A DNA stretch of 64,000 nucleotides from a virus (lineage: Duplodnaviria; Caudoviricetes), in IMG/VR virus record IMGVR_UViG_2833400001_000001, positions 5,232 through 69,231 of that record, one strand, 5' to 3'. The notes below the pieces were generated by a model, which worked only from the letters and a program-made list of their open reading frames with translations, was not told where the DNA came from and did no database searches. This document shows, in pieces, positions 20,186 through 62,641 of the stretch (within the stretch, counting starts at the first letter, position 1; each line of letters starts with the position of its first letter). Position numbers and translations under genes: made by a program.

Positions 20186-20995
20186 GGTCTAAGCTGCCTA
20201 TGCGGCAGTAAAGGCACAGGAAGAGGTACCTGCTCACATCATGGATTTCTAAGCTGCCTATGCGGCAGTAAAGAAACATCTATTGATTTGCATGGTATTC
20301 ATTATTTTCTAAGCTGCCTATGCGGCAGTAAAGTTCGCCATTAAACATTTAGGATGTTTTAATGATTTCTAAGCTGCCTATGCGGCAGTAAAGAATGGGT
20401 TTATGCCGGTGGGGAAAAGTTACCATTTCTAAGCTGCCTATGCGGCAGTAAAGTGCGGATCAAGTCTTTAATTGGGCGGATAACTTTTTCTAAGCTGCCT
20501 ATGCGGCAGTAAAGCATTACCAGTTTCGTAGTGACTAGGTGTAATCTTTCTAAGCTGCCTATGCGGCAGTAAAGGAGTACCGAGAAAGCTACATCAAGAT
20601 CTACATTTTCTAAGCTGCCTATGCGGCAGTAAAGTTATTCGGACTCTAACCAAGGGGGAACGCTAGTTTCTAAGCTGCCTATGCGGCAGTAAAGGTCTCA
20701 TTGTACTGTCCGCCTAGTACGTTCGTTTTCTAAGCTGCCTATGCGGCAGTAAAGCACTATCAGGTAAACCTGTTATGCTTAGAAATTTTCTAAGCTGCCT
20801 ATGCGGCAGTAAAGCTAGTAGTAAAAAGCCAAGAAAGAAAAATAATGTTTCTAAGCTGCCTATGCGGCAGTAAAGTGAGTATTGCTACATTGATATTAGG
20901 CGAAAGTTTTCTAAGCTGCCTATGCGGCAGTAAAGTAAGTGTGTAATTCGTCGCACCAACAGTGATTTTTCTAAGCTGCCTTTATGGCAGTGTAG
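20186..20995 (-). CRISPR. Type I-F CRISPR array, 14 repeats (28 bp, CTTTACTGCCGCATAGGCAGCTTAGAAA), 13 spacers of 32-33 bp
   Basis: Repeats counted by hand; Cas6f-type hairpin CTGCC-GCATA-GGCAG; both terminal repeats degenerate; orientation supported by CC PAMs of two near-matches. Confidence 0.98.
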
Positions 20996-21087
20996 TCTTT
21001 GATGTAAGATAAAATATTGAATTTAAAAGAAAATATCTGTTTTTAGAAAAGTGAGAGTTCCGAAAAAAAGTGCATTTTTCCGAAACT

Positions 21088-22128
21088 CTATTTAGTTGGA
21101 TTGACTACACGAGTCTTACGGATGTAACGTTGTGTCATACGTACAGACTTATGACCGAGTTGTTTTTGTGCAGATTCATCTGTGAAAGCAAGAGCAGTAT
21201 CAGTACCCGCCTTTGCACGTAAATCTCGAAATTGAAACTCGGCAATTTCGTCTGCCAACTCAGGGTATTTTTCCAAAGCTACATTACGAAGATTGCGAAA
21301 TCTTTCACTAAGCGTTGTTCTCCTTAATTTACCCCCTCTAGAATGTAGAAATAGATAGCCTGGGTGAGTTTCCATGCGCCTTGTTATAATGTCTGCGAGC
21401 TGGCCAACTAATTTTATTCTGACTTTTGCTTTAGTCTTTTGTTGCGTGATATGCAAAATGCCGTCAAAAATATGGTTTGTGTGAATATTGCAGACATCAA
21501 TCGGGCGTTGTCCGGTTAGATAAGCGATATCCATTAAGTCGCGCATATCCTGATCCGCAAGTAGATAGAGTTTATTGTAGATATGGTCCTCGATATACAC
21601 ATCTCTAGTTTCTAACGTATATTTAGTTACCCCATCAGTTGGACAAATTAGATTTGTGTAGCCCCACTCACGTGCGAATGACCATATTCTATGAAACATT
21701 TCAACTTCATAGTTTGCTGATCTGGGAGTATCTTTTCGCCACTCAAGATACATCTTGATGTGCTTAGCTTGGATTTTTTCGAGCTGAATTGGAGGGTCTC
21801 CGAAAAAAGCCATTAGTCTATTTGTTGCCCATCTATAGTTGTCTTGTGTAGCTTTTGCTTTATTGTCTAATTGAGAGTTTAGATAACGAGTAGCGACAGT
21901 GATAAATGTTGTAATTTCGGTTTGAGTGGTTCTATCGAGATTTAACTCAGCGGCTTTTAGTACTGCAATATGCTTATCATTAGTTTTAAGAGAGATTTCT
22001 TTTCCGTCAGCGTTGACGTAGTAATAGTAATTAACATATTTACCATTTTTACGTTTTCTGCGACGGCAGAGTAGGTGTTGCGGTAAGCCATTATTCTCTC
22101 TGTTTCGAGGTCTTGCCATTTTGATCAC
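21088..22128 (-). CDS. int: Phage integrase (tyrosine recombinase); likely start 22119
   Basis: TGQRPIDV, QQKT, FRDLRAK, LGH, TQRY motifs; at the prophage edge. Confidence 0.9.
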   Translation of the reverse strand: MIKMARPRNRENNGLPQHLLCRRRKRKNGKYVNYYYYVNADGKEISLKTNDKHIAVLKAAELNLDRTTQTEITTFITVATRYLNSQLDNKAKATQDNYRWATNRLMAFFGDPPIQLEKIQAKHIKMYLEWRKDTPRSANYEVEMFHRIWSFAREWGYTNLICPTDGVTKYTLETRDVYIEDHIYNKLYLLADQDMRDLMDIAYLTGQRPIDVCNIHTNHIFDGILHITQQKTKAKVRIKLVGQLADIITRRMETHPGYLFLHSRGGKLRRTTLSERFRNLRNVALEKYPELADEIAEFQFRDLRAKAGTDTALAFTDESAQKQLGHKSVRMTQRYIRKTRVVNPTK

Positions 22129-22366
22129 CTCTTTTAATAATATTAGGTGTCCATTCTGTGTCTATAGTAGGCTCTACGTTGGTTCGTTTTTTTGATTTGC
22201 GCTGGAATTCATCTTTGTGAACAATCGGGTCTCCAGCTAAAGTAAGAAAGAAATTTATTCCGTTCTTATTAAGAACTTTTATTAGTCGCGATTTTTGATA
22301 GACACTGAATATTTGGAATAAATCTTTTTTGAAATAGAAATCCGGATTAACATCTGTTTTATCCAT
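22091..22366 (-). CDS. Excisionase-like protein (DUF4224-type)
   Basis: Small basic protein overlapping the integrase start; NGINFF...GDPIV pattern. Confidence 0.6.
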   Translation of the reverse strand: MDKTDVNPDFYFKKDLFQIFSVYQKSRLIKVLNKNGINFFLTLAGDPIVHKDEFQRKSKKRTNVEPTIDTEWTPNIIKRGDQNGKTSKQRE

Positions 22367-22413
22367 GTTTTATCTCCTTCTATAGCCCTCATTTAATGTT
22401 GAAAAATATGCAA

Positions 22414-22635
22414 TTAATCTTTAAACCCGTCATGCCATTCTAAGATACGCACTGTGTCGCCTCTTTCGCGCATCGTATTATCAAAAGTAAATCCATGCTG
22501 TGTTGAGTAGTAATTTTCGAAAGTATGGAGTTTTCCATTTGGTAGAATAATTCTTACCCTGTATAGCCCGGCCATTTTCGGATAATCGCGTTGCGCAGTA
22601 CTGTGCCATCTAAGCTCTTTAGTGTGTCTTGTCAT
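22414..22635 (-). CDS. Hypothetical phage protein
   Basis: 73 aa ORF with GGA RBS in leftward operon. Confidence 0.5.
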   Translation of the reverse strand: MTRHTKELRWHSTAQRDYPKMAGLYRVRIILPNGKLHTFENYYSTQHGFTFDNTMRERGDTVRILEWHDGFKD

Positions 22636-22676
22636 TTAGTTTTCCTTTTAATAAAAAAGACCTCTAATGTAGAGGT

Positions 22677-61367: not shown

Positions 61368-61446
61368 CTTATTTTGCGAAATAGATCACTACATCAGAAA
61401 TGATATTCTGTTATCCTCTTAATTAAATTAATTAGGAGGATTTTTT

Positions 61447-62106
61447 ATGGTCTTAGGAAGAACATTTGTTGTTTCTGTTATTAGCTCAATTGTTTTGGTA
61501 GGGTGTAACAGTGTAAGTAATCAATATCGTTTTAATTCTTATGGTGAAGCTGAAGCCTATTTAGAAAAGGAGTATATGAACAAGGCAATAGAGAATGCCA
61601 TGGTTAAAACATTTTCATTAAATACCGAAAAAGATAGATTAAGTTTATACACTCTTACTAAGAATGTTGGAAATCAGCAATTTGAGGTAAAAATGAGAAT
61701 TTATGGGTTTGATAGTTATGACTTAGAAAGTGGAGAAAAATATTATTATAAAGAATATAAAGATATGAGTGATTTTATGAAGACCAATAAAGATGTTTTA
61801 CCTGGTCAGTTTTACACTAAATATTATGGGAAAGCCATATTTAATTGCACAGATAGAAAGTTAAATTTCACTGAGGGATTTGTTTATTATCCAGATGTTA
61901 TTCAAGAACACCCTAATATAGGTACATACTTTACGGACGTAGGGATTTCAACTTATAAAGTAAAACAAATAGAAAAAAGTGGCGCGCCAAGTGAATTATT
62001 GGTCGCAACGTCACCTTATCACAGACCTCCAGCAGATTATATTCTTTTTAAAGCATTCAAAGATAAAGTACCTGCATTTATAGATAAATATTGTTCTCAA
62101 AGATAG
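61447..62106 (+). CDS. Lipoprotein (moron)
   Basis: Lipobox LVGC; AGGAGG RBS; AT-rich. Confidence 0.7.
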   Translation: MVLGRTFVVSVISSIVLVGCNSVSNQYRFNSYGEAEAYLEKEYMNKAIENAMVKTFSLNTEKDRLSLYTLTKNVGNQQFEVKMRIYGFDSYDLESGEKYYYKEYKDMSDFMKTNKDVLPGQFYTKYYGKAIFNCTDRKLNFTEGFVYYPDVIQEHPNIGTYFTDVGISTYKVKQIEKSGAPSELLVATSPYHRPPADYILFKAFKDKVPAFIDKYCSQR

Positions 62107-62124
62107 TTTGAAGAAGGTGAAAAA

Positions 62125-62490
62125 ATGAAAAAGTTAATTATTGGATTAATTCCAGTTTTATTTGCTTCTGTTGCTAACGCAGAATGTTATGGAACAGATA
62201 CTTTTAGTAACTGCTATGATGGTTATGGAAATAGATATTCAGTGAGTCGTTTAGGTAATTCAACTTACGTTAATGGGTATAATTCAAATACAAGATCTAG
62301 TTGGTCGCAAACCTCTAATACTTTTGGAAACACGACATACCAAAGTGGTTATGACTCGGAGGGAAATAATTGGAGTCAAACTATACAGCATAATGGCAAT
62401 AGCACCACTTATTCTGGATATGATTCTGATGGTAATAGTTTTTATAGAACTTGTTATCGTAATTTTGATGGCAGCCAATCTTGTTATTAA
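62125..62490 (+). CDS. Secreted Tyr/Ser/Asn-rich repeat protein (moron)
   Basis: Signal peptide ending ANA; repeated GYDS.GN..S....GN.T; terminal Cys pairs. Confidence 0.65.
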   Translation: MKKLIIGLIPVLFASVANAECYGTDTFSNCYDGYGNRYSVSRLGNSTYVNGYNSNTRSSWSQTSNTFGNTTYQSGYDSEGNNWSQTIQHNGNSTTYSGYDSDGNSFYRTCYRNFDGSQSCY

Positions 62491-62553
62491 ATATTTTTCT
62501 GTTGTGCGGACAGTTCAGAAATTAACAGATATAAATATTATTTCATAGATAGT

Positions 62554-62641
62554 CTTTTCTACCGAGTAGGCAGCTTAGAAATCTTTTGCTTATAATTATT
62601 ATTCTGTTAATGCCTTTCCTGCCGCATAGGTAGCTTGGAAA
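62554..62641 (+). CRISPR. Type I-F mini-array: two degenerate repeats + one 32-bp spacer
   Basis: CTTTTCTACCGAGTAGGCAGCTTAGAAA (24/28) and CTTTCCTGCCGCATAGGTAGCTTGGAAA (25/28) vs main consensus; spacer 62582-62613. Confidence 0.85.

Follow-up and report, generated by a model that had tools for sequence, protein, structure and literature searches.

The 64,000-nt stretch of viral DNA analyzed here (the window) carries the cas2-3 gene of a type I-F CRISPR-Cas system, the leader-distal part of a host CRISPR array and, abutting that array, a temperate prophage (prophage 2) that runs past the window end (Table 1). From residue 13 onward the Cas2-Cas3 fusion is 99% identical to that of Gallibacterium salpingitidis F150, and the host of prophage 2 is a Gallibacterium close to this species. 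The F150 homology begins 12 codons into cas2-3, the first 12 codons having been lost in the window strain. The cas1 gene does not adjoin cas2-3 in the window, where a methylase gene and a phage end take its place, and it may lie beyond prophage 1. Because the first 12 codons of cas2-3 and the neighboring cas1 are lost, the I-F system may be inactive in the window strain. The prophage 2 integrase has no relationship to the recombinase encoded at 13309-14334, and the idea of a tandem integration at one site was dropped for that reason.

Table 1. Features at the locus (window positions unless contig L145 is named)
Feature	Position	Strand or orientation	Description
cas2-3 (type I-F Cas2-Cas3 fusion)	16744..20088	+	Pfam Cas3_I-F_Cas2, Cas3_HD, Cas3-like_C_2; convergent with array
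Leader-distal host array	20186..20935	-	13 repeats and 12 spacers; 32-33 nt spacing; repeat scan
Trailer repeat	20186-20213		Part of leader-distal host array
Spacer abutting attL	20936-20967		Host array
attL, hybrid repeat	20968-20995	-	In array sense: 1-14 phage (loop ATAAA), core AGGCAGC at 20975-20981, 22-28 host
P' arm of attP	20996..21087	-	Two direct arm-type boxes, TTCCGAAA at 21058 and 21078 (plus strand)
Tyrosine integrase (lambda type)	21088..22128	-	Pfam Phage_integrase and SAM-like domains; phrog_1
Excisionase candidate	22091..22366	-	phrog_8896 excisionase; weak DUF4224 match
Prophage body	22367..62553		Pfam scans and called genes in L145
S24 CI-like repressor	29855-30535		Prophage body
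Mini-array	62554..62641	+	R1 62554-62581, spacer 62582-62613 (32 nt), R2 62614-62641
652-aa protein, 5' part	62723..64000	+	N-terminal HATPase_c_3; phage cargo; runs past window end
attR, hybrid repeat	L145 15586-15613 (window-equivalent 67710-67737)	direct	Host 5' 21 nt and phage 3' 7 nt
Spacer next to attR	L145 15614-15645		Host array

The host array and the left junction

A repeat scan found a type I-F array of 14 repeats at 20186-20995, with the minus strand as the crRNA sense. The system shows the type I-F hallmarks of a Cas2-Cas3 fusion, Csy1-4, a 28-nt hairpin repeat, 32-nt spacers, and a CC PAM, the last observed for the spacer of a phage-borne mini-array (see below) and for one G. anatis host spacer. 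A self-targeting search found no spacer directed against prophage 2 itself. The prophage body encodes a DnaC-like loader, an SU10-like portal, a 2419-aa polyvalent MuF/ART protein, and capsid and tail-fiber proteins; a megablast search of the GenBank phage collection with both prophage ends gave no match.

The repeat at the left junction has five mismatches to the host repeat, every one within its 5' 14 nt and confined to positions 3-14. A preliminary description of this DNA had reported these mismatches in the phage-facing half, and the repeat is indeed the true attL. The same phage half stands beside 93%-identical integrases in two species with different host repeats, G. anatis and G. trehalosifermentans, and in these relatives it always keeps the 32-nt phase. 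The 16-mer CTGCCATAAAGGCAGC was found in one of 236 Pasteurellaceae species genomes, beside a 93%-identical integrase. The integrase contains the catalytic tyrosine-recombinase domain (PF00589, E=7e-17) and gave a weak match to Arm-DNA-bind_1 (PF09003, E=0.0034, 17.8 bits versus a cut-off of 22 bits), a domain that is recorded for many integrase homologues and after which fragments in the same 90% cluster are named. The TTCCGAAA boxes had been proposed as arm sites, and their conservation bears this out: the pair directly follows the integrase stop and is kept there in 13 relatives (44-93% identity). The P' arm also contains a terminator-like hairpin after the integrase gene.

The right attachment site and the mini-array

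The right flank was taken from NCBI contig L145, which comes from a different assembly, of the same strain or one nearly identical to it, and is 100% identical to window positions 52125-63982 (the last 11.9 kb). Past the window end, L145 carries phage genes (phrog_6203 and Ant, phrog_245), a hybrid repeat, four perfect repeats, the leader, and csy4-csy1. Phage DNA extends approximately 3.7 kb beyond the window end, and the prophage end had thus been misplaced at 62553/62554. The hybrid repeat on L145 is attR; it lies 5.07 kb to the right of the mini-array, outside the window, and differs from the host repeat only at positions 22-28. Given that attL differs only at positions 3-14, the crossover is delimited to 7 bp. 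Both hybrids are in register with the host spacers, with 32-nt gaps on each side in the window genome, G. trehalosifermentans, and G. anatis, and each keeps the 5-bp Cas6f hairpin. In the 72.5-kb composite sequence there are four exact copies of the 8-mer TTCCGAAA/TTTCGGAA, all of them next to the att sites: one pair comes after the integrase stop, and the members of the other are 46 and 108 nt away from the attR core. The direct layout (boxes 20 nt apart) and the inverted one (boxes separated by a 54-nt spacer) are both found again at the integrase genes of 26 relatives. A box at 62513, previously taken for a further arm site, is a one-mismatch variant, the real second pair being outside the window.

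The preliminary description had placed the prophage between head-to-head repeats, with the leader-repeat junction as the integrase target, TAGTCTTT as the crossover core, and a possible later rearrangement to account for the inverted geometry. What spoke for this arrangement was that the repeats at 20968 and 62554 are degenerate in their phage-facing halves only, that an 8-bp direct repeat spans both sites, and that the window lacks the leader motif; we now regard it as extremely unlikely. The 14-bp inverted pair formed by the outward halves is real, but it is nothing more than the 3' region in which any I-F repeat is most conserved, seen once on each strand. TAGTCTTT does occur at both 20993-21000 and 62550-62557, but at chance level, an 8-bp direct match between two 60-nt windows arising in 8.5% of shuffles and 6.7% of random prophage window pairs, and it is missing from the junction of a related phage. 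Beyond 62641 the sequence continues to the right with phage genes and a cognate P arm bearing arm-type boxes, the right-hand repeats are cargo, and attR is the reciprocal hybrid in direct orientation; no rearrangement is needed. The attP predicted with the head-to-head arrangement (...CATAGA TAGTCTTT GATGTAAG...) was wrong. The window lacks the Gallibacterium leader motif because the leader lies beyond the window end, and the loss of the leader first concluded from this absence was dropped. The 92-nt spacing between the array and the integrase stop was described correctly, but the leader is intact beside csy4, with four spacers attached. Divergent G. trehalosifermentans arrays sharing a 157-nt leader had been considered as a head-to-head empty site and were rejected once attR was found.

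The mini-array is phage cargo within the prophage. In the accessory region the order is tail genes, mini-array, HATPase-nuclease gene, Ant anti-repressor gene, ORF258, a methylase remnant, and the P arm. The 652-aa HATPase protein is a full-length phrog_6203 member with sub-threshold PD-(D/E)XK nuclease-like matches at its C-terminus and weak type II REase/Cas4 matches in PADLOC, and its 2.1-kb cassette is also found within three other Gallibacterium prophages. One could envisage that the stretch from 62554 to attR is separate from prophage 2, being another element or the remnant of an earlier integrant, with the mini-array as a leftover of the host array or an att scar. R1 is partitioned like the attL hybrid, its 5' 14 nt being divergent and its core and 3' part intact; the HATPase cassette is a mobile one found in other prophages, homology to which starts exactly at the end of R2; and a decayed repeat-like 28-mer occupies the same border in contig L143. 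We nevertheless consider such an origin very unlikely, since the mini-array is oriented opposite to the host array, which tandem integration by the prophage 2 integrase cannot yield, the attR P arm has the boxes of the P' arm and shows homology to its G. anatis counterpart, and neither a second integrase nor an att hybrid lies between the mini-array and attR.

Compared with the host repeat, R1 has four mismatches, all in its 5' half, and R2 has three; R2 retains the Cas6f stem through a G.U pair and the R1 stem is broken. A weak promoter-like site (62514-62541) precedes the mini-array. At six loci in HP1-like Gallibacterium prophages, 30-31 of the 32 spacer positions are matched, with a 5' CC PAM and a mismatch at seed position 5 against all targets found. 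The target is intergenic, between the holin gene and orf24, which we take to encode the tail tube (a name other than that of the Pfam entry), and the adjoining 32 nt are matched by a spacer in a G. anatis host array. The mini-array would most likely give the host Csy complex a crRNA against HP1-like competitor phages, and its activity as a guide is uncertain because the R1 hairpin is broken and seed position 5 is mismatched in every target. It is also possible, though somewhat unlikely, that integration occurred as we propose and that the mini-array acts instead as an RNA anti-CRISPR (a Racr-type repeat mimic) or as a regulatory crRNA-like RNA that ties up Cas6f/Csy. The degenerate prophage repeats, with the hairpin broken in R1 and kept in R2, are consistent with such a decoy, Racrs are solitary repeat units in phages (PMC10651486), and crRNA-like RNAs of phages are on record (10.1101/2024.10.29.618823). 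The near-perfect spacer match with the correct CC PAM at six HP1-like prophage loci argues against it, as does the G. anatis host spacer against the adjoining 32 nt, which together with this match is the signature of a genuinely acquired spacer.

Integration into a repeat in the relatives and in the window strain

In G. anatis (IMG 2833325405), which encodes a 93%-identical integrase, attL lies on contig L009 and attR on contig L225, the latter found by a pattern that combined the arm box with the G. anatis repeat half. First searches, which covered five Gallibacterium species genomes, IMG/VR, and metagenome contigs, turned up no attP or further attR copies, and neither a free-phage nor an excised attP was found in viral (IMG/VR) or metagenome contigs. 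The G. anatis attR has the phage 3' part GTATGAC, directly followed by the leader and csy4, and its P arm is homologous to that of the window genome (84% mean column identity across the aligned stretch, higher within the arm). Ten loci of prophage-free G. anatis show csy4, a 137-nt leader, a single array, the trailer, and cas2-3. One spacer was seen in two contexts, after a normal repeat in the empty locus L220 and after a hybrid repeat in the lysogen L204, and the empty locus L221 has three older spacers in common with lysogens L205 and L208. In this empty-site comparison, which concerns the 93%-identical G. anatis relative and not the window strain, a normal repeat occupies the position of the lysogen's hybrid, and the leader lies beside csy4. 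The G. anatis attL, attR, and empty sites all match simple integration and contradict the head-to-head arrangement. F150, of the same species as the window strain, is without the integrase and shares no spacers with that strain, and its contigs break in the arrays.

A survey of insertion sites, which had been suggested at the outset, covered 32 Pasteurellaceae genomes with integrase homologues and found hybrid repeats only at homologues at least 92% identical. No tRNA was found near any homologue surveyed. For one 56%-identical homologue, an I-F array whose leader is intact begins 0.7 kb downstream, and the csy4 gene in that genome sits on a different contig. Integration was seen in at least five different spacer contexts in three species; CRISPR-repeat integration recurs in at least three Gallibacterium species, at different repeats.

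We conclude with considerable confidence that a simple, integrase-mediated integration into one type I-F repeat has split the host array by a 46.7-kb temperate prophage. The lambda-type tyrosine integrase recombined a repeat-mimicking attP with one 28-nt repeat of a single host I-F array. The reconstructed attP would read ...ACTGCCATAA-AGGCAGC-ATATGAC... in array sense, and its predicted order from P arm to P' arm is P arm...GTCATAT-GCTGCCT-TTATGGCAG...P' arm. Strand exchange was limited to the 7-bp core AGGCAGC, made up of the hairpin's 3' arm and the single base flanking it on either side. The ancestral order was csy1-4, leader, 18 repeats, and convergent cas2-3. The fifth of the 18 repeats was entered, so that four spacers remain on the leader and 13 of the 17 are cut off behind the phage DNA. 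The attachment site is the repeat itself, with neither inversion nor targeting of the leader junction; the type I-F repeat had been correctly named as the integrase target, and only its assignment to the leader-repeat junction failed, since the fifth repeat was hit.

No promoter for the 13 distal spacers is visible, nor is there a promoter-like site in the interval from the integrase gene to the array. If the S. pyogenes case is a guide, these spacers are probably not expressed; read-through from the integrase gene, which is transcribed toward them, is possible despite the terminator-like hairpin. One could go further and propose a dual action against the host I-F system, in which integration into the repeat would silence most of the spacer memory, the promoter-driven mini-array would reuse Csy against HP1-like phages, and the attP hairpin might also serve as an RNA decoy of Cas6f during infection. 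The CRISPR-repeat attB would then be an adaptive class 1 counter-defense, beyond a convenient multi-copy site; we consider this reading as a whole unlikely.

Relation to known systems

We know of no detailed account of prophages entering CRISPR repeats other than that for the type II-A arrays of Streptococcus pyogenes, and no report of a type I system with a prophage in a CRISPR repeat was found in the searchable literature. Prophage 2 offers a defined att pair with a 7-bp core and a natural system for measuring the spacer memory lost by a lysogen. Annotators should bear in mind that the degenerate repeat in which an array ends may be an att hybrid, and that two arrays at one locus may be one array split by a prophage.

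The S. pyogenes analogy drawn in the preliminary description is apt. In PhiAP1.1 and its relatives (Nozawa 2011; Varble et al., bioRxiv 10.1101/2020.10.09.333658), as in prophage 2, attB lies inside the repeat, attL and attR are hybrid repeats, different repeats are entered, downstream spacers are cut from their promoter, and repeat-spacer units can occur in the phage genome. Unlike these phages, prophage 2 resides in a class 1, type I-F array of a Gram-negative member of the Pasteurellaceae and has a lambda-type integrase with arm sites in both arms; its core coincides with the stem arm on the 3' side of the Cas6f hairpin, and a hairpin persists in both hybrids. In further contrast, its mini-array is inverted and 5.07 kb from the att site, and therefore did not arise through aberrant excision where the prophage now sits. 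With virus-borne mini-arrays that viruses deploy against one another (review PMC11656645; model PMC7099407) it shares a single spacer, host-like repeats, and an anti-virus target. The target, however, is an unrelated HP1-like myovirus rather than a close relative, the repeats are degenerate, and the carrier phage itself disrupts the host array. Like Racr elements (PMC10651486), prophage 2 has repeat-like sequences, its attP core being a repeat mimic with a Cas6f-type hairpin; unlike in Racr, the mimic serves as a recombination site. Tn7-like transposons of cyanobacteria (PMC11837452) are likewise mobile elements that use CRISPR repeats as a safe, multi-copy landing site, but by transposition and not by site-specific tyrosine recombination. 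The lambda Int/attP system has in common with prophage 2 an int stop approximately 90 nt from the core, a 7-bp overlap, arm-type sites in P and P', and xis beside int; the differences are that the core of prophage 2 is a CRISPR repeat and that its arm-binding domain is weakly detected. The strategy is the same as that of the S. pyogenes phages, now seen for a class 1, type I-F system in poultry-associated, Gram-negative bacteria, with an attP that mimics the Cas6f hairpin.

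Attachment sites of prophage 2

The window corresponds to the final 64 kb of a 69-kb IMG/VR contig, and its Cas2-3 (16744-20088), 99% identical to the G. salpingitidis F150 protein, indicates that Gallibacterium is the host. All features listed in the preliminary description are present in the window; the 8-bp direct repeat TAGTCTTT that was noted at both junctions occurs no more often than chance would give. The terminal array repeat at 20968-20995 (attL) carries five differences from the consensus, all inside the 5' 14 nt. By exact-protein look-up we found an NCBI contig (JTJT01000007.1, here L145) that is 100% identical to window 52125-63982 and then extends rightward. 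The last 18 nt of the window (63983-64000) are unlike this otherwise identical contig, probably because of an artefact at the end of the IMG assembly. The right prophage end had been placed at 62554; this is refuted by L145, where phage genes continue up to a second hybrid repeat, attR.

Features of prophage 2 and its flanks in the window and in L145 (numbered in L145 order)
Feature	Location	Strand	Remarks
Type I-F array, 14 repeats	window 20186-20995	crRNA sense on minus	downstream of cas2-3
Tyrosine integrase gene	window 21088-22128	minus	stop 92 nt from array
Excisionase-like gene			adjoins tyrosine integrase gene
Mini-array: two repeats (R1, R2) around 32-nt spacer	window 62554-62641	plus	
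L145, 1: mini-array			
L145, 2: 652-aa HATPase_c_3 protein			full-length phrog_6203; nuclease-like C-terminal matches
L145, 3: Ant/Bro-N anti-repressor			
L145, 4: 258-aa ORF			
L145, 5: C5-methylase fragment			
L145, 6: hybrid repeat	L145 15586-15613		first 21 nt host-perfect, last 7 nt ATATGAC
L145, 7: four perfect repeats, leader, csy4-csy1, TonB receptor gene			repeats in 32-nt phase; 137-nt leader
2.1-kb single-gene cassette	window 62642-64000 and L145 10520-12600; L141, L142, L143 at 9921-12001		

In array sense, the host repeat reads CTTTACTGCCGCAT-AGGCAGC-TTAGAAA, attL reads CTACACTGCCATAA-AGGCAGC-TTAGAAA, and attR reads CTTTACTGCCGCAT-AGGCAGC-ATATGAC, indicating that attL and attR are hybrids reciprocal to each other that share a 7-bp core, which fits the expectation for a tyrosine integrase. 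The attP reconstructed from them would be P arm-GTCATAT/GCTGCCT/TTATGGCAG-P' arm, and the attP predicted earlier does not hold.

A 93%-identical integrase is present in G. anatis (L009, L204-L214) and G. trehalosifermentans (G072). After it come, in each genome, the P' arm and repeat half (...ACTGCCATAA, joined to AGGCAGCTTAGAAA) that the window has, and a gap of exactly 32 nt separates the hybrid repeat from the next repeat of the host. The host repeats themselves vary among these species, starting with CTTT, CTTC or GTTT and having the loop GCATA or GTATA, and the spacers adjoining the hybrid come in at least five different versions. A 16-mer spanning the phage-type loop was found in one of 236 Pasteurellaceae species genomes, beside the 93%-identical integrase. 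The rarity of this 16-mer, and the constancy of the half despite differing host repeats, argue that the 5' half of the hybrid is phage-derived and that crossover takes place 3' of the loop. By this comparison, 20968-20995 is a genuine att site.

A pattern in which an arm box was linked with the repeat half of G. anatis identified L225, a locus in the same IMG genome as L009. It holds a lambda-like siphovirus that ends in a P arm homologous to that of the window genome (84% mean column identity across the aligned stretch), followed by the hybrid CTTCACTGCCGCAT-AGGCAGC-GTATGAC and then directly by the leader and csy4. Ten prophage-free G. anatis loci (L215-L224) consist of csy1-4, the leader, a single array of 1 to 21 full repeats, a truncated trailer and convergent cas2-3. 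The spacer starting TTGCGTGTTGTTTTGA follows a normal repeat in one empty locus (L220) and the hybrid repeat in a lysogen contig (L204), and three older spacers are common to two lysogens (L205, L208) and the empty locus L221. These loci provide attB, attL and attR of the prophage 2 integrase clade. The repeats hit differ: IMG 2833325405 has a single full repeat, its first, and that one was used, and in the window genome it was the fifth of 18.

The exact 8-mer TTCCGAAA/TTTCGGAA, which marks the arm-type sites, has only four copies in the 72.5-kb composite of window and extension. Two lie directly after the integrase stop, 20 nt apart; the remaining two, inverted to each other across a 54-nt spacer, are 46 and 108 nt away from the attR core. 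Both arrangements were found again beside the integrase genes of 26 relatives (44-93% identity). The prophage 2 integrase matches the lambda arm-binding domain weakly, and its homologues have this domain on record.

Integration model and consequences

In the resulting model, prophage 2 covers about 46.7 kb, from window 20982 to a point that corresponds to 67716, and one site-specific recombination put it into a type I-F repeat, with no inversion or secondary rearrangement needed. The leader is left intact with four spacers, and 13 spacers plus the trailer repeat remain beside cas2-3. The earlier proposal that the integrase targets a CRISPR repeat is borne out by the reciprocal hybrids and by the normal repeat in the empty G. 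anatis loci. Its head-to-head geometry fails, attR lying past the mini-array in L145; its leader-repeat junction target is contradicted by the position of the repeat hit; and the leader said to be displaced is present next to csy4.

The 5-bp Cas6f hairpin still folds in both hybrid repeats. The stretch from the integrase gene to the distal array has no promoter-like site, and 3' of the integrase gene lies a terminator-like hairpin. We infer that the 13 distal spacers would be silenced, in line with the type II-A case of S. pyogenes (bioRxiv 10.1101/2020.10.09.333658).

Homology to G. salpingitidis F150 starts 12 codons into cas2-3 (window 16640-16790); other sequence takes the place of the Cas2 domain's first strand. 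In F150, cas1 is directly upstream of cas2-3; the window has there a D12-class type II methyltransferase gene and the prophage 1 end. The cas1 side being thus replaced, the same I-F locus was struck by two different prophages. A G. trehalosifermentans spacer (G072:C1:543547-543578) matches window 27542-27573 at 97% over 32 nt; I-F immunity of a sister species is therefore directed at the prophage 2 family.

The mini-array and the HATPase cassette

The mini-array lies in an accessory region, with the tail genes on one side and the P arm on the other. Its spacer matches an intergenic hairpin between orf24 (tail tube, as in HP1) and the holin gene of HP1-like prophages. G. faecale and G. anatis have such targets, as do four IMG/VR proviruses; 30-31 of the 32 positions match, a CC PAM lies on the 5' side, and all targets have a mismatch at seed position 5. 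The protospacer region is a genuine I-F target, because the penultimate spacer of a G. anatis host array (L219) targets the adjoining 32 nt on the same strand, also with a CC PAM, a pattern that resembles primed acquisition around one site. The mini-array is most likely a phage-borne guide for inter-phage competition (cf. PMC11656645). The hairpin is intact in R2 through a G.U pair and the stem is broken in R1; a Racr-like decoy (cf. PMC10651486) is a live alternative to the guide.

Three other Gallibacterium prophages have DNA homologous to the HATPase cassette, and this homology begins precisely where R2 ends. In one of the three, L143, a decayed repeat-like 28-mer (17/28 by our own count) occupies the 5' border of the cassette, the position of R2 in the window; array fragment and cassette may therefore move as one. 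The product (652-662 aa) has an N-terminal HATPase_c_3 domain, belongs to phrog_6203, and gives C-terminal PD-(D/E)XK/HSDR_N-like matches, all sub-threshold. In two lambda-like Gallibacterium prophages (L141, L143) the cassette is a moron with the tail genes on one side and the tape-measure gene on the other, and L142, a further prophage locus, has the same cassette. The gene has the look of a defence gene carried by phages.

Prophage 2 also has intergenic repeats, 84-89 nt long and 91-96% identical, at window 37391-37474 and 50528-50611 and at L145 12637-12725 versus window 36340-36428. In the first pair there is a TTGAC...TAGAAT-like stretch, together with a hairpin that has a T-run, and these repeats may be promoter/terminator modules placed before cargo or late genes.

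Neighbouring arrays and known systems

At least seven I-F arrays lie within 60 kb in G. trehalosifermentans (L132, G072:C1:546155-546367; L133, 598282-598429). Two divergent arrays have a 157-nt leader region in common, and a short array on the plus strand, its first repeat degenerate, lies upstream of csy1. A small adjacent ORF pair (99-120 aa) is found between two same-sense arrays in G. melopsittaci (L086, 13936-14599) and G. trehalosifermentans (L133, 11772-12432). From size and layout we would guess a HigBA-like toxin-antitoxin module, and it may be another insertion splitting an array. A host spacer of F150 (G001:C11:17787-17818, L200) starts with TTACTGCCGTATAGGTAG, the body of the G. 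trehalosifermentans repeat variant; its source may be a foreign array or a phage-borne repeat unit.

Tn7-like transposons that target CRISPR are known (PMC11837452), as is prophage integration into type II-A repeats of S. pyogenes (bioRxiv 10.1101/2020.10.09.333658). The literature searched contained no report of prophage integration into type I-F repeats, nor any in Gallibacterium. Prophage 2 would extend to a type I-F system the strategy described for the type II-A system of S. pyogenes.
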